A stretch of DNA of 62,665 nucleotides, the filler included, from Dugesia japonica (Eukaryota): the NCBI GenBank assembly GCA_001938525.1. It is 6 parts of 6 records of this genome, joined end to end, with 100 filler letters (N's around TTAATTAATTAA, not from the genome) between each part and the next. Parts side by side here need not be neighbours in the genome. Positions count along the whole stretch, not along the records: positions 30,411 to 43,257 come from MQRL01225774.1; 5 more parts are not named here. One strand, 5' to 3'. The translations under genes and the position numbers were made by a program. Of the stretch, positions 21,516 to 56,580 are shown in pieces (position 1 is the first letter of the stretch; the number at the start of each line of letters is the position of its first letter). Below the pieces are notes generated by a model. It did no database searches and had not been told where the DNA came from. It saw only the letters and a program-made list of their open reading frames with translations.

Positions 21516-22604
21516 GAATATGATTTTAGTTCACTAACAAACTTAACTAAAAAAAAACCTAACAAGCTTATAAATTGAAAATAATTTCTAGTGGTACCTA
21601 GACAAATTTTAACTAATTTTCTTCACTATTTTTAACGATTGCTATTAATATGTCTAACAAGATTTGAATTGGAATCGAATTATGGACCTAGTTATGATGA
21701 CATTAGTTTAGAATTTATTGTTGATTGATTCATCATTTTTACGATTTGATCGTTTGTAATCGTTTGTTAGAGGCTCGGCACTTGATGATTGATACTACTT
21801 TCCTTCGCCTCTCCTTTTATTTGACAGATATCGCAGTCCAAACGACCGCCGGGAGACTTGACAGCAGACATAGAGGCATCAATGATTTTTGCAGATTGTT
21901 GCATGCAATCTCTGTTGATATTCTTGCATCGATACATATAAATATCGTATCTGACCAAGTCGTTTCTGGTTTTCTCACTTATTCTACGAACTGGACAGCT
22001 GGGGTTTGACATAGACTTGATTGATGCTACCAAAGTTTGTGCATGTTACCAGATGAAGCGGTTGATTTAAACAAAAGTTATCTAAAAAAATTCCAAACTC
22101 TTTTTACGAAAAATCCGGAGGCGATGAAGTGTAATTAATTGCTGTAAAATTGTTTTTCTCGGATTTTCTGCTTTCTATTGGTAGCACCTTTAGAGAAACT
22201 GGGTGCTACACTCACTCTATATTACAGCTGTTTCGTTGATTATGTCGCCTGCTGTTGAAAATAGTAAATGCACACAAACTAAGTTTACAATGTTTGATGT
22301 TATTAAATTGGGTATTTAAATATAATTAATTAATTAGTCGTATTCTTTTTAGATAAATAAATTAAGAGACTACAAACACAAAATAAAATTGTAAATAAAT
22401 ATATTTTATTTGCCTTGTATTATTAAAATAATCGCATAATAAATATTATTAACAAACAGTTTGTAGTTAATTATTGTTATTTTTAACAATTTATCTTATA
22501 ATAATAAATTCATAATACATTTAAACAACATATATATTATAAACAATAATTACTTTCACATTATTAATTATATAACAAAATAAATAAAACAATAAATAAT
22601 AAAT

Positions 22605-24095: not shown

Positions 24096-24194
24096 TAGCT
24101 CTTAAAATTATTTTTTTAATTATTTATTGATATTGCATAATTGAAATTATATAATCATTTAAACTTTGTAAAAAGTTTGTTTTAATATTCTTTA

Positions 24195-24240
24195 ATTGCC
24201 TGATGATGACGGTTATTCCGTCGAAATTGATCACAACAAA
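24195..24240 (+). ncRNA. Minimal hammerhead ribozyme core in the Penelope 3' region (probably degenerate)
   Basis: CTGATGA-T-GACGG-TTATT-CCGTC-GAAA followed by the palindrome TGATCA, ~100 bp after the GIY-YIG stop. Minimal type I hammerheads are a known feature of PLE pseudo-LTRs. Confidence 0.7.
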
Positions 24241-24460
24241 TAAATATTTTAGAAAATGGTATTCAATTATTATATAAATAATAAAGTATAATTTTCGAAT
24301 ATAGATATGAGTTGAGCTTATGAAAAACAGGTTTTTGAGTAATATTGTCATATTGCCAAATTTAAATATTTAATAAAACACTTTTATTGAAATAGTTTAC
24401 ATTTAAATAAATTTTTTTATAGATTTTTACAATCTAATTTTTTGCAAATTGGTTTTATAG

Positions 24461-24832
24461 CAGTGGTTCTCAAAATATTGTTCGTAGCCCAATTGAAGGT
24501 GAACCATATTGAGATACCTCTTTTCTATATATCTTCAGGAAAAGCATTTAACATGTAGATATATTCACTCAAGAGTACATGATGTTGGAAAAAATAGCGC
24601 TACGCCCAGGATATATACCACTTCATACACAGGCGTACGTAAAAAGTTTAATAGACTACTTTTCCACTGTGATAGCAGCATATATGTATAAGAAACAAAG
24701 AAAAAGTAAATCGAATAAAACTTTATTGAACCAACTTATATAACTATATAGAAAATATTTAATATTTGAGGTCACCACAACATCAGAAACCACATTAAAG
24801 GGTTGTAACATAAGGAAGGTGAAGAACCACTG
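24461..24832. mobile_element. hAT-Charlie-type MITE
   Basis: TIRs CAGTGGTTCT / AGAACCACTG; flanks TTTTATAG / GTTTATTG (6/8, degenerate TSD). Confidence 0.7.
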
Positions 24833-24879
24833 GTTTATTGCTATGTTTCTTAACCCAAAATAATCTGAGAAGTTTTTCA

Positions 24880-27800
24880 ATAAAATAATAAATAATAAAT
24901 ATTCTACTTAACATAAAAATTTATAAAATATTTTAAAAATATCGACTTTTTTAATTCAATGAAATATTTCCTTTTACATAAAAATTTCATAAAATATTTT
25001 ACTTGATAATTTCATTAAATAAATTAAAAATATCGATTTAATTTTATGGAATATTTTATTTTACATGTTTTAAAAATAAATTTTAATATTATATATAAAA
25101 AAATTAAAGAAGGATTTCTCAAATATTTAAATCTTTGAATAATTCTTATATCCCCTCTTTAAAATATTTTTTAATCTTTTCCACATTTCTTTCAATCATC
25201 TTGCCTTCTGTACACTTCAGCAGGTATCGTCTTTCATGAATCTGATTTATCACCTCGTATGGACCTGTATATCTTTCTTTGTTTTTTTTATCTGTTTTCT
25301 ACTTTGGAAATGTCTCTTTGTTGGTGTCAACTCTCCGGATTCTTCATTCTTTACTCCATTATTGAACCATATTTCTCTATGTATTTTCTTTCCGAATATC
25401 ACTTCTGCTAGACTTATCCCCAAAGTCGTTTGGCTTGTTCCATTTAGTGTTTATTCAGTTTCTGTTATTAACTCTGCTCAATTTTTATTCTTTTTATCTT
25501 TTAATGTTGCATTGATGTAATCTCTGATCGTTCTGTATTGTCTCTTTACTATTTCGTTTGTATTATGATGATATGGGCTTGGAAAGCAAATTTTTATATT
25601 CCTTGAATCTTTCATCTCTTTGAAGGCTTTCGATTCCAAAGTCTTCCCACAATCTACATGTATCTCTTTTTNNNNNNNNNNNNNNNNNNNNNNNNNNNNN
25701 NNNNNNNNNNNNNNNNNNNNNNNNNCATCTTGTTTAACTAGGGCTGTTAAGCATATGTATCTGCTAGAATTTATCTATTATGGGACATATATATCATTTT
25801 CTTCCTAAGGTTTTTATTGAATGGCCCACAGATATTGATATAAATACTTTCAAATGGTTCATTACCTTTTAATTTTATAGTTTCCTCCTTTGTTTTAACT
25901 GTTCTTACTTTGTTCATTTGTCATGCTGTACATTACTTAATTACTTTTGACACAGTTTCTCTCAAATCTTCCATATCATATTCATTTTTTAAATAATTTA
26001 TGACTTTTCCTGCGTGCCTGCGTGCATCAATAAATTATGCATTTCTTTTACCATTTAAATTTTCTTTTCTAACGGGATCCATATTTTGCTGTCTTTTGTT
26101 TTTATTATATCTTCTATAATTCGAAACTTTTTACATGTTTCAATTTTCATATCCTTCTTTATCAGTTCAATTTCTTCTACGTTACTTTTACCATTTATAT
26201 GTATCTGAGCCTGATAAACCATTAATTGTTCTTGTCTTTATTTTTCCTTCCTTTGGATTCTTATGATCTGTTAAGCATTGTACACACATACTACAATTCA
26301 TTCTCGACTGCATATCTGCATTCGTGTGTTTTGCATCTTGTCTAAATTCCAATACCATATCTAGGCTACTAAGAAAATTTATCCACGTCTGAAATTGCGG
26401 AGTAATTGGTTTGTTTGTAATTTTCATAAATGATATCGGCTTGTGATCTGTTCTCACCAAAAATCGTTTTCCATACAAATAATGTTTAAAATGGTTACGA
26501 AAATAGTAAATGGCCAATAATTCCTTTCTTGTTATACAATATCCTTTTTCATGAGCTGACATTGCACGTGACCCATATGCAATGACTTGTTATAAACCTT
26601 TTTCGTCTATTTGCGATAAAACTCGCATCTGCATCTAGTACAAACATCTTTTTGATATCAGGAAAACTCAATATCGGTGCTTTTGTTAATGCCTCTTTCA
26701 TNNNNNNNNNNNNNNNNNNNNNNNNNNNNNNNNNNNTTGTTACTTCCACAAAGCTCTTCTAATCTTCTAGCTTTCTTTGAGTAATTATTGATAAATCGAC
26801 TATAGTAATTGCATATTCCCAAAACGCTTCTCAAGTTCTTCACAAATTTAGGTCTTTTAAATTTTTATCGCTTCAAATTTTGTTGGATCATTCCATTCTT
26901 GTCTATGACGTGTCCTAAAAATTTTACTTCTGCTTGCAATAAATGACATTTTTTTGGATAAATTTTCAATCCTTATTCATGAATTCCTTTAAAAACTTGG
27001 TCTAAAATTCTAAAGTGCTGCTCTAAATTTTCTGAAAATATCAATGTATCATCCATGTATACCATTGTTCCTCTCTATCTTCCCAATACTTTTGTCATTA
27101 ATTCTTGAAACGTTCCAGGTNNNNNNNNNNNNNNNNNNNNNNNNNNNNNNNNNNNNNNNNNNNNNNNNNNNNNNNNNNNNNNNNNNNNNNNNNNNNNNNN
27201 NNNNNNNNNNNNNNNNNNNNNNNNNNNNNNNNNNNNNNNNNATAATATTCATTACCCAAATCAATAGTACTAAAATATCTTGACCCACTCAAATTGTCTA
27301 GTATTTCCTCTACATTTGGCATCGGAAATGCCTGTTTTCCTTGATTGCATTCAGTTTTCTAAATTCTAGACATAATCTAACGTCTTTCCTTTTTTTCCAA
27401 ACACATATTAACGGAGTGTTCCATTGCGAATTACACTTTCTAATAATGCCATTGTCAAANAAATTATTGATAGCTTTATCGATCTTATTCTCTAAATGCA
27501 TTGTTTGTCTCCATGGTTTCGTATTTATTGGTTCTTTATTTGTGATTATTTGATGTTTTGCCATTGTTGCTCTGCCGATATTCCAAATATCTGCAATGAA
27601 TATTCTTTTATAAATAATTTTAACTTTCTTCAAGTTCTCGTTTGGCTTGTTAATCGATATTTATTGCTCTCTGTACTCTCTCTTCATCCGATGTACTGCG
27701 TTCATACTTTGCTTCTATATTACAAAGATACATTTCATTGGCCTCATATTTAGTCTCTCTCAGCAGTTTGAATCCAAGCTGTTTCTGTAATTCTATTACT

Positions 27801-28850
27801 CCTATTAGATTTGGATGTATCTGTTTCACGACAATTAATTTAATTAGTTTGCTTTTTTTTCTCGAATTGCATTTCTACTTTTATCGTATCTACTATTTCG
27901 AGCGGACTATTATTTACCTTATATTAAATTGTCGTCGCTTTTTAATATATTGGCTTTTCCCAATCTTTCCAAAATTCTCAAACTCATCACATTAACTNTT
28001 GCTCCAATCAATTTTTACGCCTTGTATTTCAACCGTTATACTTGATCTACCTAGCATCTTGTCATAACTTATCTCTTGTCGCTTTATCTGTTCTATCGTC
28101 AGAATTTCACTATCATCTTCTCCATTTATATCATTGATCATCTTTAGTTAGCCTTTAAACATTTCTTTCTTTAAAAACTTGTAAACCTTTTCTTTTACAT
28201 CATTGCACTCATCTACTCGTTTATCTTTGTTTCTTTTATTTGTATCATTATTTATACTACTTTTACTATAATTAACAATACTGCTATTTTTGGGATACTT
28301 AATTCATTGGGTATTCGTCTTTATAAATATTTGATCCTTCATTACAATAGTGGTCTTTGTCTTCTCTATATACACAATCTTTTCCATTTTCCTCAATTAA
28401 ATTAACGTGACTTCCATTCCTTCTTGTGTAGTTATTCGTATTATTTGAATAATATATTTTGTTGTCATTTCCGAATACTTTTCTGATCTGTTCACTTTNN
28501 NNNNNNNNNNNNNNNNNNNNNNNNNNNNNNNNNNNACAGTCCTCTGTGTGGTGACCTTTCTTGTTGCATCTTGAACAACTAACTTTGGTATAGTCTTTTC
28601 TTAAGTGTTGTTCAGATCCACAAGCATAACACTTTTTTTCTTTCTTGACAATTTCTGCTTACATGAGCTATTTTGTTACAGATCCAACACATATTTTCTC
28701 GTCTTTCGTTGTTTCTGTTCTGTTGCACTCCTACATTTCGACTTTTGTTGAAATTTGTTTCTTCAAGACATTGGCGAACTGCATCTCTGTAGTTACGAAC
28801 TACATTTATTTCTTCAGTTTTTACTTTGTTTATGATATCATCATATTCTT
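24880..28850 (-). mobile_element. Degraded Ty3/gypsy element (gag CCHC, RT, RNase H, IN, PPT, 3' LTR)
   Basis: CSRCNKKGHHTEDC (~28536-28580), IIRKCNSQWNTPL, YMDD (~27050), LDADASF, ELLAIYYF..TDHKP, SPYHHNTN. PPT AAAGAGGGGA at 25151-25160. Confidence 0.9.
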
Positions 28851-28859
28851 TAAATCAAT

Positions 28860-29830
28860 TAGCAACCACGAAATTCATTTAAAAACTAATCAAGAAATTC
28901 AGACGAAAGAAAATCTTAAAATTAATGAAACCAAAAGCAAATTCAGAATGACATCTGTTGATTTTCTTGGATTCAACATATCTTCACAAGGAGTAAAACC
29001 AGTCAAAACTCGTATAAATGTAATAATAGACTGTCCTTCACCAACCACTGGTGCCTCGCAAAGAAGATTTTTAGGAGCAGCTACATTCTACCAATGGATG
29101 ACTCCAAATCTCTCTGAAACAATGGTTCCTCTTCATAATCTGTTAGCATCATCGAACAATACTCACAGGAAGCTACTATGGACATTTGAGCATAAAAAGG
29201 CTTTCACATATATCAAAGCAGCACTAAATCGAATTACAAATATGACTACACCTGATTCAAATAAAAAGTTAATATTTTAAACGGACGCATCAAATATTGC
29301 AATTGGAACCAGTCTAAATCACGAAGTCAGCGACAAACTTGCACCTATCGCATTTTTCTCAAGAAAATTAAACAAGACAGAAAAAAGATATTCAACGTTT
29401 GACCGTAAACTCTTAACCATCTATCTATCCATCAAGAATTTCAAACATTTCAAGGCAGCGAATTCACAATTTTAACATATTACAAGCCTCTGCTATACAT
29501 TCAATCGATGAAAAACCCTACAAACAGGCAATAGCGTCATATTGAATTTATCAGCCAGTTCTCATTCCAGCTCAAATACGTGAAAAGATCAGAAAACGTC
29601 GTAGCTGACTTCTTATTCAGAATTCCAGAAGAACTATTTGAAGGCAAAATATTTTCAATAAGAACGGATGAATTGATCAAAGAACAACAATCAGACGCTT
29701 CACTCAGACAACATCACTCACTAAAAATAAAAAAGATCGACGGAATCTTGACAGATACTTCCACACAACCCAGAATTTTGCTACCAATCCGATACAGAAA
29801 TACTGAGTTTGACAGATTGCACCACATTAA
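28860..29830 (+). mobile_element. Second-family Ty3/gypsy pol fragment (RT thumb, RNase H, start of IN)
   Basis: VDFLGFNISSQGVKP, RRFLGAATFY, TDASNIAIG, IAFFSRKLNKTEKRYSTFDR, ENVVADFL.R. Confidence 0.85.
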
Positions 29831-30057
29831 GTATTTTCCTTGTTTTACTAAACTTTATTGGAGACCACCAGTCGAGAATCAGTGATTTATAGAATTCATT
29901 TTAATGTAAAATATATTGTAAAATATATTATATATCTATTTTGTAAAATATAAGTAAATTCGATATTCATTTAATAAGTATTTCATTGTTATGTTAATTC
30001 TTCATTTTATTGATTTATTATTCAAAGAATATTTTTGCAAAACAAGTAAATACTATT

Positions 30058-30275
30058 AGTAGGGGGATAGTAGCGCATTAGCCCACTTTCATTTTAGCAG
30101 TTATCGAGGAGATCCCCCCGGTGTGGGGGGCTCGGAAACACATTACGAGTGGGCTATGTTTTTTTAACTATGATTTTTGTGTTAGTTTTTTTTTCTAAGA
30201 TTTTTGTGATCAAATATTTTTTGATCGGATCAAATTTTTTTTGATCGGATCAGTTTTTTTGATCCTGGTGGTTTG
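30058..30275 (+). mobile_element. Polinton-like terminus, copy 2
   Basis: AGTAGGGGGATAGTAGCGCA..GGAAACACATTACGA..TTCTAAGATTTTT..GATCGGATCAG is homologous to the reverse complement of 9320-9440. Confidence 0.65.
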
Positions 30276-30310
30276 GATCATCGCGTATATTAATTTCTAT
30301 ATTGTTTATA

Positions 30311-30410
30311 NNNNNNNNNNNNNNNNNNNNNNNNNNNNNNNNNNNNNNNNNNNNTTAATTAATTAANNNNNNNNNNNNNNNNNNNNNNNNNNNNNNNNNN
30401 NNNNNNNNNN
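30311..30410. other. Artificial scaffold linker
   Basis: N44-TTAATTAATTAA-N44. Confidence 0.97.
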
Positions 30411-30427
30411 ATAGAAATTGCATATCT

Positions 30428-30660
30428 AAGACGGGATACAGCATAGTCCCGCTGAATCCGTGAAAAGAAGGATCGGGTTACTAGAAAGAGTAGCACAAAC
30501 TTCTGTGGTTGCTAGGTGTCATCCCCCAGACAGAAAAAATATGCAGGAGAAGTAATTATGATCAAGAGATTAAAAATAAAGAACACTAAAATCAAATATT
30601 AAAACAACATCAAAAGCCTAGCAACCTAACAGGAATTTGGGGGGCTCAGCCGGCATCTCA
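30428..30660. repeat. Unclassified structured dispersed repeat, copy 2
   Basis: Homologous to 10340-10470; CGGGA..TCCCG hairpin. Confidence 0.7.
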
Positions 30661-32569
30661 TCATAAACTTATCTAAATAAAAATATCGGAATATTCAAAA
30701 TTATCACATTAAAAAAACACCAACACCACAGATTATATAGTTCAAGTTGATAACATCTTTAAATTGCCAGTGTCCTGCACGGGTTGGATAATCGGAGACG
30801 GAGGCATGTGGTGTGTTGTGATCGAGATGATGACCTTAATAAAATATTCTGTTATTAAGTATAACTATAAAATATATTCAAATAAAAATAACTGAAATTT
30901 TATGTTAATTTTAGCTTTTAACAAATATTTATAGAAAAAATCCACAAATGTATAAAAGGACTAAAAAAAGAAAATTACAAGAAACAGTTTTTTATTCTCT
31001 TAAAAACTTTTAGAAATTTTTTTTGTGTAATACGAATTTCAAGAGTTAATGCATATTGTAATATAATGCCTGTTTTTGTAATAATACTAATACAAAGAAA
31101 CAATCGGAAACTTTATGTAAATGAAATATGAAAAACTACATGAATACAAAAATGTATTTATCAATTTTGTGCAAATCAAAGAGAATATGACAATAAACAA
31201 GGAAGAGAAGATGATGATCAATTCAAGGATATAAATGTACAAATAAAAGTAGAAATTGATTTTTATAAAGTATTTAACACAATTTAGTATTTTAAAAATT
31301 TAATTAATATGCCTTCTTTTTCTTATTTTTTCAGCTTGTTTTTCTTAATGTGCTTAGGGAAGGTTCAACCACTACTAGACGACAAAACTGAATTTCAATA
31401 AAATTGTTAACATTATAAAAACGAAATATGAAGTATAGAAACTAATAAGAGCTCAGGATAAAATGAATTTTTAGGGGAAATGAGTGGATGATCTCGGATA
31501 GTAGTGAGAATTTGTGCATTGCTTATAATAATTATTTTGATATTTTAAATGATTTTATTTATCTATTAATATTTTAATGAATATTATTTAAAGCGATGTT
31601 CGCACTATGAGTAAAATTTTACTAAGTGAATTTCCGTAATAATTGAAAATTAATATTTTGGATTAAACAAGAAAGCAGTAATAATTTTTGTTATAAATTT
31701 GATGTAAAGTTTAGCAATAAATTAATTAAAATTTTAAATAATCGCAACCACGAATAATTGTTTTGTTTTTGATTATTAATTTAATGATTACGAATATAAT
31801 GAGCTAACATAAATAGTTCGGAGATATAATTTACTAGCACGGCAATTAACAGATGTCTGGTGGGTGATATTTTAAAATGATTTTATCTATTGATGGTTCG
31901 TTTTTTTTACTTAAAATTTTCATAAATGAATTCGAGCAAAAAATTGAATAATGATAATAAATAAGACTTCAAAACTAAAAATTACCTTGCGTTGAATTTC
32001 AAAAGGATAATTTTCAGAATAAAAAGATCATATGAAGAAGCTTCAAATTATAATAATATTTTGTGTCACAAAAACATTTTCTTCATTTTAATACTATTTA
32101 CTTTGTGAGTAGTTGACAGTTATATAATTTGTATAATTTTTGGGTGATTAAAACTTTGGATTTTTATTAGTGAAGATTGAGATAAAATAATTCAATTTTG
32201 AACATAATTATGTTAAGTTTATATTAAAATGATAATTTGTTTTGATTTATTAATATGAGAAATAATTAATGTACAAAATATTAAAAAAATCACTTAAAAC
32301 GTTGCAATCAATAATTCGATTAGAAATTCAAACATAAATCTGTCAGAATCAATAGCAAAATTTCATATAATCTGTTTTGTTTTAATTCGCAATTAAAATT
32401 TGCTCAATTATCAATTTGAGGCTATATCAAATCAGAAAACCATGTTCAGTAAAACATAATCATACCTTAAACATTATTTGAAAAATATTTTAAAATTTCT
32501 AATGAAATTATACCTAGAAAAATTGAAGTGCAATCAATTAAATCAATACAATACATTATTTCTCAATTA

Positions 32570-32910
32570 CAATCGATTCATATTATATTCCAAGTATTCC
32601 CTATCAAACCATAGAGCATATAAAACACCGGTTTTGCATGTTACGCAAGTGACATCATGATTATGATTCCGTATATGTTCCGAATGGTTTGATGGCTTTG
32701 TACCAACTTCATATAAATAAGATTAATGCATACACTGTAGATCGATGTTCAATAATTCAAAGCCTCCGTTGGTGTGAGTTTGTGCCAGGTTACTAAATGA
32801 AAAAACAATTAATTAATTTTTATAAATAGTAAAAATAGACTTACACGTTTTGCTACGTTATAAAATATACAAATGCTAAGCAGTTTAATAATAACTGCGA
32901 GGTGGAACAT
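32570..32910 (-). pseudogene. Possible decayed host gene: signal-peptide exon plus short-chain collagen C4-like domain
   Basis: Exon 32910-32845 MFHLAVIIKLLSICIFYNVAKR|GTAAGT; acceptor TTTTCATTTAG at 32793; downstream frame THTNGG..LQCMH*SYLYE..HNHDVTCVTC..REYLEYNM resembles HNHDVPCAVC..REY.GYLM. Exon phases do not join cleanly and there is an internal stop. Confidence 0.35.
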
Positions 32911-34589
32911 TTAAATATTTCGTTAAAACAAATCAAATATTTAGATATTAAATATTAAATATATTGAATGTTGAATATTAAATATCATTAAATTCTATAT
33001 TTTAAATTTATAGTTTTAAAAAAATATATAAAAATCATTTAAACTATTATAGTTTAGTATAGTTTAATAAAATTCAGATATTTCCATATTCTATTCGGTA
33101 AGTAACAATGCTAGCTAAAGATTTACTCTCATGTAAAGTTACTTCAACATAAAAACCTTAAAATATGGAAATCTAATTTTTACTCAATTGAAGAGAAGTA
33201 TGACATGAATTAAAGATATTGAATCGAGATTATTAGATTATTAAAATTATGCGGAAAGTGATAAAGTGAATAAAAAGTAAAGAGAGATATTTTTAAGAGA
33301 ATTTAAAGATTAACGAATAATTATTTCAAAGAAATTAAAGGAATAATGTAGAGAAGGATTAAAACGATATGAATGGTTAAATGATATGGAAATTATAAGG
33401 AATTAATGAAATAAATTGACTAAGTTGGGTAAGGGCCGCAAACATAATAACCAGAATTAATGGAGAAATTGAAACGATGAAAGGGATAATAATTTGAATA
33501 ATGACGAGTAGATGAAACAAGTAAAAGGAACCAAACGAATTAACGAATGAGTTAATGTAGATTCAAGGAGTAATCTGAAACATAATTAAATATAACCTAT
33601 ACTTATCAAGAAGTGTAGGATGGGTATCGGGACAGTCAACACAGATAGACCCAAGCGAGGTACTATCGAAATCTTAATCGACAAAGGGACGGAGAAGGGG
33701 ACTATGGCGTTATAAGAGGTTCTATGATTACTGTGGTGTCCAGCAGGAACTACTCACAGGAATATTTATTTTTTTAATTGAAATGTTTAGAGTTAGAAAC
33801 TATGAGAGAGAAATTGCAAGTGTATCGAAATATCAGAAGTGGGTTTGAAAGAAAACCTTGAGTTTGAAAGAAGACTCGAAGTAATCATAGATATTTGAAA
33901 GTACGTTATAACGGAATCGATTTTGGAAAATAGGGCCCGCAATCAGTAAGCTAGAATCCGAAGCCTGATCAACTTCCGAGAGGATAGCCCTAATTATTGT
34001 CTACTGACCAAGAAAAGGACGTTATTATTGACTAATGCTAAGAAATCTTCGAAGTAATTGTAGTGAAAGAAGATCTTCTGAAGATATGCTTGAGACTGAC
34101 TTCGAGCTCTACGGCTGTAGATAAGAAGTACTGCTCTAGAGAACTAACTACTGTGGATAGTTCTCAGGCCGAAAGAATCACGATACAAGATTTATCTAGT
34201 AAAGATCAGTCAAGATTCACAAGGAATCAATGAAGGTGTCGGCAAAGTTCAAGCATCCGTTAATGACAGGTTGACCGCCTGCTGCACTCAGGTTGGCGTG
34301 GATTTGCTTTGAAATCCATTCCCTACAGCTATCTGCTCATAGCTCTACAGAATTTTAATTAAAAAGTGAAACAGTCCTAGTAGAATCAGTCGAAAGTGAT
34401 TCGGAGAAACTTGTGATTATTGTATTTCATTTTTGTTGACTAGAAGGTACACCAGTTGCCAAAATTGGAATCAGTTTAACGAGAGATAGAAACCCCGGAG
34501 AGTTTCAACGGTAATTTCATATCCGAGCAGCACGGATATTACAAATCAGTGAAATTTCACATTTTACTGAGATGCTTCACATTAAAGAG

Positions 34590-34805
34590 TAGATTGGAGC
34601 TGAACCAGATAAAATAGACTCGCAGCTACTCTTGACACATTAGTTGGAGAGCCTGGAACTGAATTGAAATAGACTACCAGCTACTCCTGAAATAGGAAAC
34701 TGTCGATTTAAAGATAACCGAAGCTGAAAGAATAGACTATCGGCCACTTAGATATATTGAAGGATGGAAGCGATAATTGGAGGTGAATCTAAATAGCCTA
34801 CCGAT
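34590..34805 (+). repeat. Degenerate ~60-bp repeats in the leader of the gag-UBL-G element
   Basis: Four units containing GGA(G/A)CTGAA..AATAG(A/C)CTA..(C)AGCTACT. Confidence 0.55.
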
Positions 34806-35426
34806 TGCAAAAGAACTAACAGAATAATGTTAAACGATATTTTACCGTAATAATGACGAAATTTACAAAATAATTATAGTTAAGTATGAACTCATGATAT
34901 AGGATATTGGACAAATCGAGGAATAAAATTTAAATAATATACATCGTGAGAAGAGAAACAAGAAATAGAAAATGCAGAGCAGCAATCAGGAAAGATTGTA
35001 GAAATTTTGGAATAATAATTTTGTAGTAATAATGTGAAGTGATGATGGGATAAATATGGCCAAAGTAGAAATGAAAATAAAATAAGGTATGATGATTAAA
35101 GAGAAATGAAATCGAGTATAGATAAAAGTCAAATCGCGGGTAAAACCTAAGGAATTAAACGAGATAGATTGGTAGATAATGTATGCAATATGATATACAT
35201 GACTAATTAAAAGTGTGTAAAAATGTGAACTATGTGAACTAACAAAGTATAGGAATTAATAAATTAATAAATTGCGTAATAAATAATAAAAAGTATATGA
35301 ATAATAAATAATAATAAAGCGCATGTGTATTAAAATTAAACAAACTGCTAATAAGAACTAATGTTAAATGAATAAAGAAGTGATTTAGAGTTTAGAAGCC
35401 GGGAGACTATCATATTTTACTTTCAG

Positions 35427-36880
35427 GTTATTCAATAAATCAAACGATCAAGAACTCAATCAGCTAATTCATCATTGCGAATTCAGCAGACAGATACAAT
35501 CTACGAAATTCGACAAAAAACAAGAAATCTTATTCAAGTGATAAACCACATTCCGCAAAGAAAAGAAGAACAGCATCATTCAATCCACAAAACAGAAAAC
35601 TATTCGATCAATCATTCCTAACAGAATCAGGAACTCCATCAACTCCAACAAGATCTACAGATAATTTAACAGACCTAAACGAAACTAGCGAACCAGATTC
35701 AAATCCAATCGGCGATTCAAAATACAATTACAGTACAATATCATTGAGCCAATCGAATTCAGGAAGAACAAGCCCTACGACAACAGTGAGATCTGAAGAT
35801 ACCAGCGTGGAAACAATCTATCAACCATCAAGTCAATTAAACACGTGTAATAGTAACAGTCCAGAATCTAGTGACGAATCAATTATATCAGGAAACTAAA
35901 CGTATAACCAAGACACGACGATTAGTCCTATTGAGAAACCGAAGGACGACAGCCTAAGTGGAACTAAAGTTAAACATGGATCAGAATGGAAAACAGAGTT
36001 CAATGAAGAACATTATTCGAGCAACCCGGATAAATTAGAGAGTTTCATAGCGGCATACGAAATTCATAGAAAGACATGGAGATGGAGTGAGGAGAGAGCA
36101 GTAGAGCGATTGCCATTATATTTAAAAGAATCGGCGAAAACGATATATTGGAACAAAGCAAAACTAGTCAAAGATGGCGTAAAAACATGGAAGGATGCTT
36201 AAAAGATCTTAGAAGACAACTTCAAACCATTGACATTACAAGGAAACATTACATTGTCCAAGATTTTACAGCTAGACGACAGATGAAAGATGAATCTTTG
36301 CAAGCTTATGCAATAGAATTGTGGAGACTCGGAAAACTAGCCCTCGAAGACGAGGTGCAAGATAAACTAATTCTTGGAATATTTATTCTTGGAAGGTCTC
36401 AGAAACTCAGAAGTGCGAAAGTGGGTTAATTTAATGCAACCAGAAACGGTGGAACAAGCTATAAACTTAGCCGGAGTATCACAAAAAGTAGAAACTACGC
36501 CGAAACTAGCTAGTATCTTTAAAATTGAGGAGCAAGACTCAGGAGTGAAGAAGATCCCGAAGATAACGAATTGCATACCAGGAAATACGTAACCTTTGCT
36601 AAAATCATTGACTCCGGGACAGAAGACAATTGAAGAACTCAAGAAGAGGAGGTGGCAATAGACAAAATAATTGGCAACCAGCGAGTAATCAAAATTGCTT
36701 TAACTGTGGGGAATATGGACATATAGCCAGAGAATGTCGTTTAGTGTCATTAAGTTGTACATTATGCCAGAGAATAGGACATACAGCAGATCAATGTTAT
36801 ACATCAAAACCCATAGTATGTTATACTTGCAACAAACCGGGTCATACGAGTAGAAATTGCTTCAGGAATACGAGAGGGAG
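35427..36880 (+). pseudogene. gag: Ty3/gypsy-like Gag (capsid + three CCHC zinc knuckles), frameshifted
   Basis: LESFIAAYE..WRWSEERAVERLPLYLKESAKTIY, RRQMKDESLQAYAIELWRL, FLEGLRNSEVRKWV..PETVEQAINLA; CFNCGEYGHIAREC, CTLCQRIGHTADQC, CYTCNKPGHTSRNC. Confidence 0.9.
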
Positions 36881-39800
36881 TGGGTATGGAAATAATAGCC
36901 ATGGCTTCAATAACAAATCAAATAATCAAGCAATCGAAAACATGATACAACAGAATAATAGCTTACGACAGTAATTACAGAATAACCAGAAGCAGAGTCA
37001 ACAGCGAGTTAACATGATGCAACAGGAAATGCAAAAACATGAAGCAACCCAACAAAGAATATATGATCAACTCAAACAGAAACAAGAGTATTTACAACTA
37101 CAATGCGAGAAGCAGCGGGTTGCGCAGATGAGATTAAACGAGAGAGCGGCAAACCACAATACTAACAATCAAGGTCGAGTGAATATGATGCGACTAGTTA
37201 ATGAAACAGAAGTAAAGATCAAAAAGAGTGAACAAACATCGGTAAAACGAAGGATAGAAAGTAAACTCGATCTGATACAAGGATTCAAAGGAAGGATCAA
37301 CAGAAAGACTTATTGGAAATTAATGAATCACGTTATGGAACTAATGGAATGTAGCCATCTAAACCCAATTATCAAGGAGGAATGGCAGCCGGTGATCTGG
37401 GAATACGAAAACGAAATGAAAGAGCAAACGAAGCCAGACGATTTTATAATTATGATAAACTAAACAACTAAACATTTAAAATAATCAGACAAAAAAATAG
37501 CACCGTGTCAGGTCATCTTGCAAAACGATACGGGGGGAGGACTATTGTGTGCTATTTAAAACGAACAAGTATTAGAAGAGCCATTAGACAACTATGTAAT
37601 ATGTTCAAAGACGAGAGTAATTGAAAAGGACCATGTTACCGTTAAAAAAATGGAAAACTGCATAAAAGAGATAAATCTGATGATGACGGGAACAGAAATA
37701 AAAGCTCCAAAAAGCAATCAAGTGTTAATCGCACAAGTAAATATGATGACAACTAAAGATATATCTGAGACTGAAGATGAAGTAGATAATACAATCAAAG
37801 AAGAAATCGAGACAATCGAAGTCTTACGAAAGGTAAAAAGAGCTATCAAGGAACCTATCAAAGATGGAAATGATTCGACAAAAGCTATCAACAAAATATT
37901 CGCGATAACACGGAATTTTGAAAATAAATTAAACAGATGACGTTATTGGATGACAATGAATCATTTGGTAGAGTTAACGGAACCAGGCCATGTGGATATT
38001 ACAACGAAAGAGAAGTGGAATCCGTTAATCTAGGAATACAAAGCTGAGGTAATAAAGGAATCTCAAAGCAAGGATTATTTTATCTGGGTCGGAGAATCAA
38101 TCAAGCCAGTAACAATAAGCGAAAAGATATGGAATTTAACGAACTTACAACAAATGACGAAATACCATCGTCCAAGAGTCGTAAAAATCAAAGGATTAAC
38201 ATTCCGAGATCCACTGGAAGCTTTATCAAAATTAGAGTGGCCAAAACCGATAACGGAATATATCATACATACTCCAACAATGATTGTAGATCAANGTGAT
38301 GTTGATGAGCATGTATATACTTATGGAGTCAAACCAGGATGGGAACTAGAAGTCAGAGTAACTGACAAAGAGCGAGTGTATAAAGATAAAGAAAAATTAT
38401 GGCCGCACTTAGATTTTCGAGCAACTGAGGAAATTTTGAAATCGCCGTATAAATGTCATGAGTTATATTGTTCCGCTTATTAAACATCTGAAACTCAAAG
38501 AACAACAGTATCAAATTATAGAATCAAAAACAGAAGACAACAAACCTGGTACGAGTCAAGGAAGATTATTTATGATAAGATCAATATCAAACAAACTATT
38601 GAGTAGAAATAAAAACAGTCCAAAACAGGCAACAAGTATGACTGATATTAGTATGGGTGAGTTCAGTGAACCACCAATATCCACGGACGATAATTCAGAT
38701 CACGAATACTATCAGAATGTGGTAACGGTAGAAAAAAGAAACCCTATTTCAAAATGACAGAATCTCGAAGCAGTCGTACTGGAGAATAATGAATATAGCA
38801 TGGGATGAACATTATAATCAGCTGATGAGGGGAGCAAAACACAGTACACACCCAGAATTAATCGATATGTACAAAGGGAAGGTATTAAAGGAAACAGTAG
38901 GAGCAGATTTTGGGGTTAAAATCAATTATCCGACAATAAACGATAATTTAGTGATAACGATGCAAACAAAAATAATTAAAAAATTCAAGACGACAACAGT
39001 CGGTGAATTAAAAGATATATTTAATGAATTGCCACTAGAACGTGGGTTGGAAAGATATAGAATCATATGTGATTACATGAAAATTGAACGAGATAAATTG
39101 AATAATCGAGATATTCATTTAATTGAGTTCTGGTTAAGACCTGGAGAAATTACAGAATTAACGTTAGAATATGATGACGGACAACCGAGAAGTGTTGATA
39201 AATTTTCAGTCAGTAGAATGAGAACAAAGATGAGAAAAGTATATCAAGAGGAAATAGATAAAATGGATTATCTGAAATTAGTACATGATGATCAAATAGG
39301 ATTAACAATAACTGTGGGAAATGAAGTGGAACCATGGAAATTGTTGAAATGGAATTTAGCGAAAATTGGGCTAATAATACTAAATAATTTTAATTATATT
39401 AAAAGTAGAGAAACAAAAGAGGTAATAGATTGAATCAATCAACTAGGCTTAATATGCGGGGAACATTTCAATGAAGTAGTAAGAGCAATAGTCTTATTGC
39501 ATGCATCACAGACGCCAAGACAAGTAGTGAAAGTGACAGCTCACTTTCCAGATGAGTCAAGTAAAGAACTCAAAGTAAAAACGATGACAAAATGGGAGAA
39601 ATTTATAAAACAGATACTAAAGTATGTGAATAAAGAATCGCTAATAGACAAAAAAAATATTTCAAAAGTAAAAAGAGAAGATATTGTAATCTATTGCGGT
39701 GAGGAAACCACAGAAGATCTTGACAGTGATGCAATCAAATTGTCAGGTATATGGCCAGGTCACATGATGAATATATACGTATTTGCATCGGAAGATGGAG

Positions 39801-41779
39801 ACAGAAATTTGTTTACCCGAAGAGGAATAAGAGAAAGTTTATGTTGGAAAACGATACAGTATTATGTGGAGAATATGAACCCATTAGTGCCATGGAGATT
39901 ACAAATACACTCTGAGGAATTAAATTTCGAGTTTACGGAAAAAGTGACAATGTTACGGTCAAGGCAAGCATTGAGTCGTCAATATTGATCCAATCAGGAG
40001 TTAAACGGATCAGTAGAAAGGTTAGCAATGATGATACATACAAAGATAACAAACGACTATGCATCAGAAATAGTGAAACAATTTATATCATTAATTAATG
40101 AAACGGATATTCCGAGGGACCAAGTTCAGAAATTAGCAAAACAGATTCTGAAAAGTGATTTATCAATAAACGAACTAAGAGACCTGACATTTGAAATATC
40201 ACGATTTAAGGAAGAGTGTGAGTGGAGGCCATCACAGTTCAGAGCAATCATTAAAAAATGGTGAGATATAGAAACAGATGAAATTGAACCTCGACAATAC
40301 CGCTTTCAAATAATAGATCCTAAAGGATACGAAACTAAGATAGCCGGTCTGGCATACGAAACAATTGGAGTTATAAAGGAGAGAATACCGTACGAACCAC
40401 CATATATTTTGACATTAAACAATAAAGAATTGCTAAACGATGACGTAATTGGAACATTAAATATTCGATGGGAGATGTCGAACAATTTTTATATTAAACC
40501 CGAAGCGAAAAGGAAATTAGTGAGGGAAATGTTTCCACAAGGCAAAATGAAGTCTACAGGAAAACCAATCCACCAAATCACAAATTATCCACAACCAATT
40601 TTTATTGACAGCAAAGAGGGTACCAGTTACATGACCCCAAAATCGATAAAGAGTAAATCAGCGAAGCTAAAAAGACATATAATCTCCAGAGAAATTACGA
40701 CAAAAGAAGATGATATTATGAAACAATTATTTGGATTATCAAACGAAGAGGATGAAGAGATACAAATAACTCATTTTGAACCAGCAACGATGACAATAAA
40801 ACCAGTGAATAAGGAGAAGACAGTGAAAGATAGATTCAATCCTAGAGAAGTAGACTATGATATCAATAACAAAATACGGTCACAACCCAGAATATCAGAA
40901 GGAACAAAACAAAAATCACCATCATTAATGGAATTCGAGCAAAACGCAAGGACGCCAATTATACCAGAGTACGAATTTGGAGAAGAAAATATAGGTCCAT
41001 CAGCAGAATTTGAAGAGGAAATGACGACAACAGATAATAAAATCGAAACTACGGATAATCAAGAAGAAACAACAGATCACGAAATATATCAAAAAATAAT
41101 GGTCGATGTAGAGACAAAAATGGAACGAAAGGCGCGTGGACGACCAAGAGGATCTATTATGAAAAAAGGAGCAACACGTCGAAAGCCGACATAAAAGGAA
41201 CAATAAGTAGCAGTATCACAAGAGATCATGGAGAATTGTGAACTATCAGAACTATCAACGGAAAAAAGGATGCATCACGTATTACTAATATTATATCCAG
41301 AGTTAAAAATGTGGATTGGAAATACAGTATTATCGGCGGAGTGTAAAAAAATTGCAGCAATATTGGAACCTGTAATACAGAAACTACCAGCATTCAAGTG
41401 GACAGGACTGAGAGAACGAGATAAAGTAGAAAGTGCAGTCGAAAAAACATTGGGAGAATGTCCAAGCGCGTCGAAAATTGCAAAGGCATTGGCATACCTA
41501 TGTAAACAGACACAAGCGGCGCTAGTACATCGTAATACAAGTGCAAAAGTAAAAATGAACATGTTGCCAATCGTTGAAATAATATTTGATAGAATTGAAC
41601 CACTTATTTTGAAAATCGGAGGATGGTCAGCGTCGATGGAAAAATTAAAACCAGAAGCGAATCTACAACGAAATTTAGCAGAAAGAGCGCGATTGTTAAT
41701 GAAAGATTATATAGACGAAATAGGAATGGAATCTAACAGCAGCACAAGAACGAATACGAGGGCAAAGGGTATACAATCA
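36881..41779 (+). pseudogene. Non-pol polyprotein middle region: Q-rich coiled coil, VNMM repeats, tandem ubiquitin-like domains, AT-hook, helical domain
   Basis: ORFs 36630/37014/37650/38154 share one frame and 38789/39497/40028/40409/41228 share another, separated mostly by isolated stops. UBL-like segments at ~38170-38365, 38912-39175, 39521-39785 and 40292-40500; RKARGRPRGS at 41126-41155. No YxDD, RNase H or DDE motif seen. Confidence 0.65.
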
Positions 41780-43257
41780 ATGTTAATGTTATTAACGATA
41801 ATGCTTCTGATGGGCCGAGGTGCGGCGATAAAATGGATATTGGAGAAACAGTTTGCTCACTAGTAGACGTGGATAAATGTCCAGAAGCAAATCCAGAAAA
41901 ATTAGAACCAGTTCGAAAGGCAATACCATATTTTGTGTATCAGGAATCAGATTATTACAAGACAAAGGTGAGAGAATGTAGAATGACAAAGACAGTTTTT
42001 GTGTATTATTGCGGAGCAAGAAGCTATACAGCAATTATCGAAACTGGACAAGAAGTGAAACAGATTTATCTAACCGGAGAGCAATGCGAAGAAGGATTTG
42101 TAACCGAAAAGATACGAGTAGCTGAAGGAAAAATTGTTGGTGCTAAAAGTGGACAGATCATGCAAACAAGAATATTCGCATCAGGAAGCATATCGGATGA
42201 ACATGGAACATTTACTCATGGCACCTATACTGTAAATGGGGTAGTCACCAGTTATGTGGTAGCGATAGAAAGTGATCGAGTCAAATTAAAGGAATATGAT
42301 GCGTTCTTCGATACAAAAACACAATTGATGAAAATGTATACCATGTGTAAAGCGTCAGATATTTCATGTGATACGGNAATGTCAACTTTAGTATATAATG
42401 TTAATCATCAAGAATGTGCAATGACATTTCTAAAAGAAACCGCGTTCAACGAATATCAAGGTAAAAAAGTTATTGAAGTAGATGAGAAGGAAACGATACC
42501 ACCAGAAGGTAAGGTGGATGAAGCAATGAAACCAAAAACAGGTGAAATACACTGGGTAGAAACTACAGTAGTCTTAATGTCAACTGACAAAAACAATATG
42601 ATACGATTAATACGAAAAAAAACAAAATCAAAATGTGGAGAATTAGTATACGAAACGAATTACAAAGGTTTGTGGGTATCAAAAACGATATTAGAGAGAG
42701 CTAAAGCAGAAATCACACTAGAGGATAAGAAGTTACATCTCTATATTAATAATAAAGTGGATCATCTGTTTCATCTAACACAAACTTCAATAGAGAAAAT
42801 ATATCAGGATCTAGTGTGGAACGATTGCACATTAAAAAACAAAATATTAAAGACGAAATTGGCAAAAGCAACTGCAAATCCAGATAATGTATCACCATTA
42901 TTCCGATAGAAGAAGGGCAATTTGGACGAATTGTGGGAGAGGTAACGTTCAAATATCGATGCAAAAAGGTGGACGCAACGTTGGCACCAATAGAACATAA
43001 TAAATGTTATAATGAAGTGGAAATCATATATAACAGAGAAAGACGATTTGTGCAGCCAATCACTAGAGTAATATCACCAAGAGGATTTGTCCCGAACATG
43101 ATAAATTGTTTAAACCTATTTGGACCTTACTTTAAACTGCATAACAATAAATGGGTACGATTTCTAGAGAGAATTCCAGTAACAGGGGTCAGAAATTTTT
43201 CACGATTACAATTAAAAGGTGGAGCAAAATTTACACCGTTAAATGTAGCCGAAGGTG
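41780..43257 (+). pseudogene. env: Chuvirus-type / gB-like (class III) envelope glycoprotein ectodomain, truncated by scaffold end
   Basis: Signal-like MLMLLTIMLLMGRGAA; SLVDVDKC, VREC..YYCG..SY, KCGELVYETNY..L, LYINNKVDHL..IY..L..NDC, G.FGRIVGEV..Y.CKKV, KCYNE..I.YN..FVQPITRVI. This Cys/motif spacing matches chuvirus G and retroelement-borne homologs as I recall them. Frameshifts at ~41830 and ~42900. Confidence 0.8.
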
Positions 43258-51439: not shown

Positions 51440-51960
51440 ATAATTGTAAAATAAGACAATATCAAAAGGAATCTTCCTGATTATAAAATAGCAAATATGA
51501 ATTTCCTAATCATTAAAATAGACAATATCAACATGAATTTCCTAATTTTAAACTAGAAAATTATCAACTGAATCCCCTATTTATAAAATAAAAAAATATA
51601 TCAAAACGAATTTCCTAATCATAAAATAGACAATATCAACATGAATTTCCTAATTTTAAACTAGAAAATTATCAACTGAATCTCCTATTTATAAAATAAA
51701 AAATATATCAAAACGAATTTCCTAATCATACAATAGACAATATCAACATGAATTTCCTAATTTTAAACTAGAAAATTATCAACTGAATCTCCTATTTATA
51801 AAATAAAAAATATATCAAAATGAATGTCTTAGTGTAAAATAGAAAAAATCAAAGCTGACTTCGTAATTCCAAACCAAAAGAATATCACCATTAATTTAGT
51901 AATCATAAAGTAGAAAATCTCAAAATTAACTTAATAATTATAAAATCGAGAATTAGGTCA
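51440..51960. repeat. Higher-order tandem repeat (~109 bp x3, built from ~36-bp monomers)
   Basis: AATCATAAAATAGACAATATCAACATGAATTTCCTAATTTTAAACTAGAAAATTATCAACTGAATCTCCTATTTATAAAATAAAAAATATATCAAAACGAATTTCCT repeated three times, with degenerate monomers on both sides. Confidence 0.9.
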
Positions 51961-54200
51961 TGAATGGTAAATCCAAAGAAAAAGAAAATTCTTTCATCAA
52001 AAATAGTTCATAGTGATAACCTAAAAAAGTAACCAAATTAATAGGACTGATAAATAGAAGAAATCGGAACATTAATTTAATAACTGTAAATCTAAAAAAT
52101 ATCCCAAACAGTTTAATATAGTAAATAGGGTGAATATAGAAAAAATCGTAACATTTGTTAATTAAACGATATCAGAATGATGTTGATAATGAAAGTAGAA
52201 ATCTGTCAAAATTAAATAGAGCAGATAGTGGTAATAAATGCCTAAAACACAAATTTTAACATTTAAACCAAGACAACATCATTTTATTACTTCTACCAAT
52301 TACATCGAGTATTATTTATAACACAACTGGATTAAATAATGAAATACCTGTAAAATCATACATAACGCAGGAGATTGGAGGTCATAAGTAAAAAATCCAA
52401 GACATTGATCCATAATTAGCTATCCTGCTAATGGCGAAGTTAATGAAAATTCCGATAAAAGAATTCCCGAAGTGATAATTTGCGAGTATGCAGTATCGGA
52501 ATTATGAAGTTATGAGGCACACACACACAGAGATGCATACACTAACCACGAGCTTGGCAGTGATGTTGACCTTGGATGTAACCATGGAAATATAAATTCC
52601 CGGCATTTTCAAATCAACACTGGATTCTTAAATTCATACTAATCGAATTATAGAAATATCAGCTAGTAATATTCAGCACATTCATTGAATTAATTGTTCT
52701 ATTAATAAAATAAAGTTTCTCATAACTAAATACTCTCAACAACACTTTCCAAAAATTTGTCCAAGAATTGAGTCAAATTAGCATTTCAAGTTTATGACTA
52801 ACCCCCTTTTTCTAACCCCATGTGTTCAAGGAATTGATAAAGATTTTATTAATCATCTCGTCAATATTACCATTATTATTTCGGTGGTTATTATTCTGAT
52901 TATGATTATTATTACTAGCTATATTATTCCGAGATTATTTTACTATCCAATTTCGCAATATCAACATCTTGATAATCAGTTTGACACATTACTACTATTG
53001 ACAATCCTGAACATTACTTTCGACACTAATGTTGTTATTATTAACTTTGGTAACCCTAGTTTTACCCTTAATCGTAACATAGTTCGTTATATCATTACCA
53101 AAACATATGCAAGCACTCCGAAATGATGTTAAGAACATTGTCAACGTTTAAATTGTATATTATTGAAACATGATGTTACATTAATGCTAACAATAAATTC
53201 GACGATAGAGCTAAATAGTAGACTGATTATACAGTTAAAATCCAGATAGCTAATGCCTTTATCGCGTTCGCTACGAGGGGGTAAATACGCCCTGGGGAAG
53301 TTAAGCGTTATTCATATCATAAATGCGCAAATCCGTAGTATCATTTCGTTACTAATGTTATCACCCCACTTGCGACGAATATATATAATTTAACTGAGAT
53401 TCTTATGCTTGTATCCGTTTCAGTAATGCCAGCCCGACTACGCCACATGCTTCGGTGGATCAAACAGCGACGTCAGTCTGCTAGGCTCAAGCAATTAATC
53501 GCGCACCTTCTGACCAATGGGGCCGTGGAACACCCCAACGAGACAGACTTGCAGTGTTTCGTCGAGATGTTTCCCCTGACGGTTCCAGTCGACCTCGACG
53601 AGGACTTAGAAATCCTAACCGCATGGTAACGAGTGGCTTGTTTGATCATTTACAACATTAAATAAATAATCGTTGCTGCGGAGTTTGCGTTATTAATTTT
53701 AAGATTTTGCTTACAACATTAATTAAATAATCTCTGCGGTAAATTTTGCGTGATTGATTTCAAGGTTTTGTAAAATTACAGTTGTAGTAACACATATCCA
53801 TCCCGGATAGTTTTACGATCTTTTCATTGTAGAATTTCTCTAATGGATCACGTATGGAACGTGANTACGGACATCCAAACGGGGTTATCCACATTCAAGA
53901 AATTCAGGAATCCGCATAATCGGGACGCAGGAGTATTAGTCAATAACTCCAACATAACCCCCGAGTTAGCGGAGGAATATCGGAACTGGGAAGCCGAGGA
54001 ACGAGAAGCGTACTACCAGTGGCGTGGCCCCATGCAGGACCGCCCTTATTATCCTCGGTCTCCTCGCACTGATTCCACTTCTATGCGATTACCACGAATT
54101 GAACGAGTGTGGTCGGAGAGTCCTATGGTGTTCGGGTTTGCTACCACCCAACTACCTTCTTATGACCACCTTTCTTCCTTCATCCAGAATAACTTGTGGA

Positions 54201-54300: not shown

Positions 54301-56580
54301 GGAGAATAATATAAAACTGGAATGGGTTGGAACAATTGAAGTAGAACAGAAAACAAATATTTCGTATCATCAACTGCAAGGCATACCAAGTGTTACGGTA
54401 TCAATTCAAAGAAATGAAGTCGAATGTTTATTAAATACAGGGGATCGAATTAAATTTATGAGTTTGAGTTATTTTAATAAATTACGAGAACTACATTTAG
54501 AAATGAAAGATAAAAGATTGCTTTGTGCAAATAATGGTACACTTGAAATTGTTAAGGAAGTTAAAACTAGAGTGATAATTGATGAAGTTTGGCAAAGAGA
54601 TCACTTTCTTAGTTGCTGAAAGAGTGACACCAGATCTAATAGGAGAAATAGATGTTCAAAAAGTTTTTTGATATCAGTTTAGGCGAAACTTTGATAGCAA
54701 AACGGATGAAAAAGTTGAAAATTAAATTTCTAATATTGAATCGAAATTCGGAAGACAAATTAAAAAGAGAGAGCGATTGACAAGAGCCTTAAATATTTTG
54801 AAGATTAAAGGGGATCAACGGTCATTGAAAATAATTGTAAGTAAAGAAGATGCTTTTATCGCAGATAAATGAGATGTAGGACACATATATCCGACAANAT
54901 GCAAAATAATCAAAAGTTGTGAACCAATCAATGTAAAACCGTACAATCAACCAATGAACTTATAATATAAAATTGAAGAAACTATCCAAATCCTTTTCGA
55001 GAATAATATTATCCGGAAATAAAACTCTCCATGGAATACCCCACTGATTTGTTTTTGGAAAAAGAAAAAGACGGACATTGAAATATGTTTGGATTTCAGA
55101 AAACTGAATGCAGTAACAAAAATACAAGGCTTTCCGATGCCGAGCGTTGATGAAATGCTGAAATTAGATGAAGAAAATTTTTTAAGTTCAATAGATTTGT
55201 GAAATGCGTATTATCAAGTAGAACTCGAAGAAAAATCTCAAGAAAAAATAACGTTTTCAACAAAGCACGATCAATATTGTTTTAATAGATTGCATTTTAA
55301 GATCGCAGCGGCACGGAGAACATTTCAGGAGATGATGACAAAAGTGGTAAGTGGAATTAAAGGAGCTATGGTTTATATCGATGACATTCTGATATTTACG
55401 AACAATAAAGATCAACACTATGAAGTAATTGACCGATTATTGATGGAAATAATGAAGGCTGGTTTAAGAATTAATCCCGTTTCTTCAAAGCGAAATCAAA
55501 TTTCTTGGACACATAATTAACAAGGATGGTGCTGGAACTAATCCGTCTATAATAGAAGCAATAAGAACAATTGACAGGCTTAAATTGCGTGAAAAAGTTA
55601 CAAAGCTTCTTAGAAATTTTTAATAACTGCAGGAAATTTATTGAAAACTACGAAAAAATCAAGGATCTTAGAAAAGTTGTGTAGCGGACCAAACAACAAA
55701 ACGTTAGGATGGACAGATGAAATAAACGATACTTTTCAGGATCTAAAGAAATCTCTAATGACTGCACCAATATTGTATTTTCAAGACATAAACAGAGAAT
55801 TAACGTTAGATACAGATGCCAGTTTCGATAAAATTGGAACAGTATTGTCACAGAAAAATAAGGAAGAAAGAGAAAAGGTTGTTGCATATTGATGACACTC
55901 AATGACAAGTCATGAAAAGGGATACTGCATCACACGAAAGGAGGTATTGGCTGTTTATTATTTCTGCATGCATTTCAAACATTACTTGTATGGTAGAAGA
56001 TTTACTCTTAGAACAAATCATAAAGTTCTAACTCTAATGATGAGGTCACAATTCAAGACTAGTATTAATTAACTGAGTAGTATAGACATAGTTTTGGAAT
56101 ATAGAAATGAAATTCAACATGGTAATGCATATATGTTATCTAGACCAAGATGTCAAGTTTTTGTACCATCTCAAATATCACATGAGGATGTCAAGAAAGG
56201 GAAGTTTAAAGTGAGAAGACTAAACATAATTGAAAAGTAAAAAGAAGAGCAATTAAAAATTTCTGACGAAACAGATTTAATCAAGAAACTAAAAATTTCG
56301 AATGACAATATACATGAGAGAATAGAAGAAATAATTTAATTATTATGCCATGCAGGAGTTGAAAAAGTGTACGAATATATGAGAAACAAATATATTGCTA
56401 AGAATTTGTGAAGCCAAATACTGAAGATAGTTTGTAGTCATGAAATTTGTCAGAAGACCAAAGTAGTTAAAAAAGAGAAGACAAATTGATTAGAAGCTAC
56501 CAATTTCTTTGAAGTCATATTCAAAGATATATGTGGGCCAATGCTGGAAACAAGTGAACGGAAAAAATACATTCTTGGAA
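54301..56580 (+). mobile_element. Degraded Ty3/gypsy pol (protease, RT, RNase H, IN N-terminus)
   Basis: VECLLNTG (protease-like), SPWNTPL, CLDFRKLN, VYIDDILIF, LDTDASFD, HYLYGRRFTLRT, LCHAG, DICGP. Confidence 0.9.

Follow-up and report, generated by a model that had tools for sequence, protein, structure and literature searches.

A decayed Burro-type retroelement of Dugesia japonica with a triplicated cargo module and candidate ubiquitin-fold domains

Analysis of a 62,665-nucleotide stretch of the Dugesia japonica genome (assembly GCA_001938525.1; hereafter the window, six joined parts of which positions 30,411 to 43,257 come from MQRL01225774.1) locates up to five candidate ubiquitin-like domains, D0 to D4, in the cargo of one retroelement. 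Eukaryotic DNA, rich in AT and in repeats and interrupted by gaps, makes up the window; its + strand holds a single decayed long terminal repeat (LTR) retroelement, which extends from roughly 33,400 as far as the gap at 43,258 (Table 1). The coding path, read directly, runs from gag through three CCHC knuckles and about 1,600 codons of cargo to a hydrophobic stretch at 41762 and then env; a Pfam search of the window finds no protease, reverse transcriptase (RT) or integrase between gag and env, and the gap conceals what lies beyond 43258, and with it pol, the 3' LTR and the total length. The initial annotation placed the domains in a retroelement polyprotein, which is supported by the matches to PF00098 and PF24664 and by a gene order that corresponds to the published Burro layout. 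As described in PMC6431247, the Gag of planarian Burro elements has two or three knuckles; MATH, a Ubi2/SUMO-like motif and BCL2 follow, and ahead of pol comes an in-frame env of mononegavirus-like type. The Ubi2/SUMO-like motif, reported in 2019, is PF11976, found by HHpred between MATH and BCL2. Further marks of the Burro type are a single long polyprotein, PR-dUTPase-RT-RH-IN, a length of 15-30 kb or more and paired LTRs.

The individual parts of the element are recognized with varying clarity. A 5' LTR is probable where, in the 33342 bin, the contig depth (run X1) climbs from 739 to 40,286; it stays at 23,000-40,000 through 34709 and lies at 5,000-23,000 inside the element; the window holds no second copy of this putative LTR. 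The capsid-like region of gag has no Pfam match, and neither has the candidate Bcl-2-like part, whose alignments with two viral Bcl-2 proteins reach their C-terminal homology region without being significant (719/5,000 shuffles). With PF24664, a fusion family of the Monjiviricetes, the env matches at E 1.2e-24 and 8.1e-11. At the end of the acidic linker lies an Arg-Gly-Arg-Pro motif (41135-41152, +), which we take to be AT-hook-like.

The window copy of the element is dead. Its coding frame is broken by 5 stops in 1,034 codons at 38732-41833 and by 6 in 542 codons at 36975-38600; across 39000-41400 the other two frames carry 9-33 stops per 600 nt, as against 1-2 in the coding frame. The cargo region attracts almost no reads in two RNA runs. 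At an identity of at least 85%, 4,908 of 10,004,874 and 2,173 of 10,231,477 contig records from two runs match the element; the matching records are 85-99% identical and cover 30/30 bins, and thus, while a number of records is not a copy count, the element represents a many-copy family. Three stop codons of the window, and sites next to three of its frameshifts, read differently in contigs from other copies, so those breaks look private to the window copy; this holds among the 40 differences listed of 789, which do not include the stops at 39431, 39986 and 40262 that lie between D2, D3 and D4. None of the copies seen is intact.

Table 1. Features of the retroelement, in window coordinates.
Feature	Coordinates	Strand	Evidence
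Probable 5' LTR	33342..34700 (approximate, inferred boundaries)	+	Contig depth jump
gag: Ser/Thr-rich N-terminus and capsid-like region, with frameshifts and stops	35468..36690	+	Reading frames; capsid likeness by eye
Three CCHC zinc knuckles (nucleocapsid)	36693..36860	+	PF00098, E 2.3e-14; three motifs read
M1: Trp-rich N-half and candidate D0 (~37482-37712), three in-frame stops	37302..37730	+	Module alignment
M2: N-half and candidate D1 (~38130-38369)	37941..38381	+	Module alignment
M3: N-half and D2 (~38936-39178), possible beta-grasp	38777..39187	+	Module alignment; combined profile
D3: likely SUMO/Rad60-like beta-grasp with insertions, without di-Gly	39515..39796	+	Atlas; SUMO hidden Markov model (HMM)
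D4: likely ubiquitin-like beta-grasp with short helix, without di-Gly	40292..40504	+	Atlas; glocal profile
Acidic low-complexity linker	40520..41190	+	Sequence
Possible Bcl-2-like helical domain	41207..41740	+	Position matches Burro order
Hydrophobic stretch, likely env signal peptide, in the frame of D2-D4	41762..41830	+	Sole hydrophobic stretch on cargo path
gB/chuvirus-type env, frameshifts near 41840 and 42900, ended by the gap at 43258	41848..43256	+	PF24664

The firmest new result, drawn from alignment of the predicted protein, is that the cargo contains a module of about 140 residues three times (M1, M2 and M3). Global alignment gives z scores of 11.1 for M1-M2, 6.2 for M1-M3 and 6.5 for M2-M3, each with 0/5,000 shuffles, and tblastn within the window recovers the self-match of M1 at E 0.008. 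M1 and M2 are identical at only 211 of 373 aligned DNA bases; that the module has nevertheless been kept at the protein level, with z 6-11, points to an old duplication under protein constraint. The N-half is a Trp-rich segment of about 50 residues (37302-37460, 37941-38093 and 38777-38914, +; R1-R2 z 13.5, 0/5,000 shuffles) for which Pfam, NCBIfam, PHROGs and PDB sequences give no match. D1 and D2 are related, since each forms the C-half of a module copy (13/5,000 shuffles in global alignment), and the corresponding part of M1 supplies a fifth candidate, D0, upstream of the range covered by the initial annotation.

The initial annotation described four tandem ubiquitin/SUMO-like domains, here D1 to D4, and the four peptides that it quoted are all encoded where it had placed them, on the + strand and in the coding frame. 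Its observation that none ends in di-Gly holds as well, GG pairs occurring on the path only at 37533 and 41618. The arrangement itself has to be redrawn. About 115-180 residues separate the domains, which are therefore not head-to-tail, and they do not form a tandem polyubiquitin: only D1 and D2 are related, D3 and D4 matching neither each other nor D0-D2 (at least 592/5,000 shuffles). D2, D3 and D4 share one polyprotein frame; D1, which contains an N at 38295, lies in a different one, with a frameshift between ~38600 and ~38750. Nor does D4 depend on read-through of a stop, as it falls wholly within the stop-free frame 40265-41194, and the stop at 40262-40264 only splits off the part upstream.

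Comparison with ubiquitin and SUMO profiles gives weak signals for D3 and D4 that agree with the assignments initially proposed: D3 scores best with SUMO and D4 with ubiquitin. Against 26 SUMOs, D3 is equalled by 37/2,000 shuffles (HMM) and 44/1,000 (glocal), and D0, D1, D2 and D4 by 679, 91, 74 and 86/1,000, the value for D1 being the best that it attains with any profile. Against 19 diverse ubiquitin domains, D4 is equalled by 67/2,000 (HMM) and 7/1,000 (glocal, z 2.9), and D1, D2 and D3 by 222, 411 and 565/1,000 (glocal). A combined ubiquitin and SUMO glocal profile brings out D2 (z 2.6, 7/1,000). Fisher combination over D1-D4 with a threefold correction gives p = 0.006, a value inflated by the choice of windows by eye. 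The bacterial genomes L213 and L222-L231, which served as profile material, hold divergent ubiquitin domains inside long open reading frames (ORFs) of up to 2,675 residues. Among ESM Atlas neighbours, whose ubiquitin-clan scores of 0.85-0.89 are leads only, the first-ranked for D3 is a ubiquitin-like cluster (0.88) and the fourth a PF11976 cluster (0.87); for D4 unnamed clusters come first, and PF00240/PF11976 clusters (0.88-0.89) follow from rank 5. The named clusters shown for the two domains are ubiquitin/Rad60 families, one of which also carries DUF2604. D4 shares 14 identities with a ubiquitin sequence, and D1, D2 and D3 have in common a Pro-Gly turn ahead of the final strand-like stretch.

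Several results weigh against a ubiquitin fold. None of D0-D4 has a ubiquitin-clan Pfam match above the curated cut-off, while 4/4 control proteins passed the same search; PDB sequence searches return no ubiquitin-clan match, and hhalign gives probabilities below 1%. With a profile of 155 near-canonical ubiquitins, none of D1-D4 beats its shuffles (1,002, 472, 668 and 368/2,000), and a three-copy profile of D0, D1 and D2 is not significant either (108, 457 and 492/2,000). True ubiquitin-versus-SUMO comparisons (16 sequences) yield z 2.5-9.4, so that the candidates' best values, 1.4-2.9, lie at or under the bottom of this control. Among 750 windows of the element D3 ranks 4-5, D4 7-8 and D2 9, and chance windows, some out of frame, score equally high. 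The Atlas scores are below 0.9, and the ubiquitin-named rows share 118-141 of 256 features. AlphaFold models from single sequences have a predicted local distance difference test (pLDDT) of 43.3 for the frame holding D3 and 50.6 for D4, too poor to judge fold; fold searches with these low-confidence models list no beta-grasp, and the D4 model has a strand at the position of ubiquitin's helix. Neither a Pfam clan match nor a predicted beta-grasp was obtained, the two supports on which the initial annotation had staked its call, but models with pLDDT of about 43 and 51, for which no alignment was buildable, say little about fold.

On balance a beta-grasp fold for the candidates is plausible, and to an unequal degree. 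It is likely for D3 and nearly as likely for D4, through the Atlas neighbours and the weak profile scores; it is slightly favoured for D2, tentative for D1 and rather doubtful for D0, the last two calls deriving from kinship with D2. A reading that keeps some credit, though we prefer another, is that only D3 and perhaps D4 are beta-grasp domains, equivalent to the single Ubi2/SUMO-like motif named for Burro (PMC6431247), and that D0-D2 are an unrelated triplicated module of some other fold. D0 has no ubiquitin or SUMO profile signal and D1 none of its own, the three-copy profile is not significant, and the module shows no kinship with D3 or D4, all as this reading would have it; the combined-profile score of D2 and the Pro-Gly turn shared by D1, D2 and D3 speak for a wider set of ubiquitin folds.

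Modifiers that lack a di-Gly end cannot be conjugated, and the candidate domains therefore could not be attached to other proteins. The SUMO-like domains of Rad60 and NIP45 bind SUMO-pathway proteins without being conjugated. Our preferred reading, to which we assign a probability of roughly 45%, is that in working copies the cargo provides several beta-grasp domains, integral and incapable of conjugation, that would serve host binders of SUMO and ubiquitin as docking sites or decoys. The element would be translated as a single Gag-cargo-Env(-Pol) polyprotein, as in Burro; because the cargo precedes the env signal peptide, it would stay on the cytosolic side, either tied to Gag or freed by the element's protease. 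There D3 would act in the manner of the Rad60/NIP45 domains, and the candidate ubiquitin-like cargo, together with its Bcl-2-like neighbour, would blunt the host cell's silencing, degradation or death responses. In flies, PIWI-type silencing uses SUMO. BURRO1 is PIWI-silenced in planarians (PMC8532177), so counter-silencing cargo would have something to act on. The docking or decoy function is preferred because D3 resembles Rad60-type domains, because BURRO1 is held by PIWI, and because the cargo of Burro (MATH, BIR and BCL2, varying among Burro elements) is host-directed according to the available parts of PMC6431247.

The same domains might instead be structural or scaffolding modules of the element itself, serving folding, spacing, protease regulation or contacts within Gag with no mimicry of the host, an explanation that we regard as unlikely. 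The divergence of the candidates exceeds the distance between ubiquitin and SUMO, and D4 has Thr at the position of Ile44, neither of which suits faithful mimicry; that D0-D2 always come with a Trp-rich N-half suggests a fold unit larger than the domain. Coronavirus nsp3 contains beta-grasp domains, Ubl1 and Ubl2, inside a viral polyprotein and unconjugated, a precedent for such integral modules. A purely internal role fits poorly with the host-directed Burro cargo alongside and with the Rad60/SUMO-like clusters named as neighbours of D3. Improbable in turn is the most far-reaching form of the docking or decoy hypothesis, in which a five-domain uncleavable ubiquitin/SUMO-fold array within one polyprotein, three of its members amplified as a Trp-rich-plus-ubiquitin-like cassette, would be a multivalent chain mimic that soaks up host SUMO and ubiquitin readers (silencing, proteasome or ESCRT endosomal-sorting factors), a retrotransposon counter-defence through domain amplification.

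Quite unlikely, in our estimate, is that ubiquitin-like units fused to Gag would be a built-in substitute for a late domain and recruit ESCRT for the budding of enveloped particles. The element does have an env, and on its coding path PTAP and PPxY are not found and one LYPxL-like motif occurs, at 41294; ubiquitin fused to Gag is reported to drive ESCRT-dependent release, more strongly with more ubiquitin (available parts of PMC2958808). That budding, however, requires Leu8 and Ile44 (PMC2958808), and D4, the most ubiquitin-like candidate, carries Thr in place of Ile44 and Tyr in place of Val70 in the Leu8/Ile44/Val70 patch; the initial suggestion of ESCRT recruitment is on account of that Thr doubtful for D4 as far as the Ile44 patch is concerned. 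D3 retains Ile and Gly at the positions of 44 and 47 in a pairwise alignment, although alignments of D0-D3 with ubiquitin are unstable and partly out of register, which makes their patch residues unreliable. Least likely of all, with the curated-profile, hhalign and fold searches blank and other windows, some of them out of frame, scoring like the candidates, is that no domain is a beta-grasp and the likeness arose by chance in strand-rich, fast-evolving cargo, since two separate Atlas queries both gave ubiquitin-clan families and PF11976 has been published at the same place in Burro (PMC6431247).

Outside the element, long ORFs at 16327-19551 (+) resemble by eye the protein-primed DNA polymerase region of Polinton/Maverick-type elements, with N-terminal zinc fingers; pieces related to them lie at 5471-6202 (-) and 3848-4621 (+), and the window holds three related pieces in all. 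These ORFs have no Pfam match; a weak PF03175 match lies at 4827-5249. A decayed gypsy RT region is present in two inverted copies (12824-14837 and 57771-58958, 82-88% alike), and further RT pieces lie at 22634-23553, 28630-29280 and 54900-56000. Minisatellites with a 28-bp unit and a unit of about 35 bp occur at 15719-15971 and 51478-51976. Spacers, N runs around a 12-base linker with stops in all frames, stand at 9827, 19553, 30311, 43258 and 54201, roughly 10-13 kb apart, and the pieces that flank them need not be adjacent.

Planarian genomes are shaped by Burro-type elements, which PIWI silences and whose host-like cargo has a function that was called worth testing in 2019 (PMC6431247); the literature searched yielded no functional test of it. 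Both this type of element and the presence of a SUMO-like motif at the corresponding position were already published, and the presence of many ubiquitin folds is unproven. The literature searched likewise yielded no report of several ubiquitin-like domains, or of a triplicated module, in one such element, although Grohme 2018 and Repbase may hold more. The present analysis thus refines a known annotation by mapping as many as five candidates together with a triplicated module that has no name. Amplification of several ubiquitin-fold domains within one family, if true, would be a sign of selection for a function directed at the host, and D2, D3 and D4 would then be small, stop-free domains that can be studied alone.

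Among known systems, coronavirus nsp3 offers the same embedding of unconjugated ubiquitin-like domains in a polyprotein, but belongs to an unrelated virus class, and no deubiquitinase domain is seen in the window element. The SUMO-like domains of Rad60/Esc2/NIP45 (PF11976) and integral UBL domains (PF00240) are the named Atlas clusters closest to D3 and D4 and are likewise integral and without di-Gly; the window domains differ in scoring below every Pfam threshold, in the insertions of D3 and in the short helix of D4. In the platyhelminth GAG-ENV-POL errantiviruses of the HSV/gB type, env also comes right after the gag ORF, and the window env aligns colinearly with those given for Smed_errantivirus_5 and _6 in the supplement (PMC13524379); its identity to Smed_errantivirus_5, counted by eye over ~180 residues, is only ~40%, so the window family is a relative and not one listed there. 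The words 'ubiquitin', 'SUMO', 'Burro' and 'accessory' are absent from the available text of PMC13524379. The closest system is Burro/GYPSM1, giant gypsy-like LTR elements that share with the window element a Gag with three CCHC knuckles, long cargo, a Ubi2/SUMO-like motif ahead of a BCL2-like domain (both candidates in the window), an in-frame mononegavirus-like env thereafter, and many copies with decayed fragments bearing stops and frameshifts (PMC6431247). Unlike them, the window element shows no MATH, BIR or ankyrin match by Pfam in the part present, and whereas one Ubi2/SUMO-like motif is named in the available parts of that paper, the window element offers as many as five candidates besides a triplicated module.

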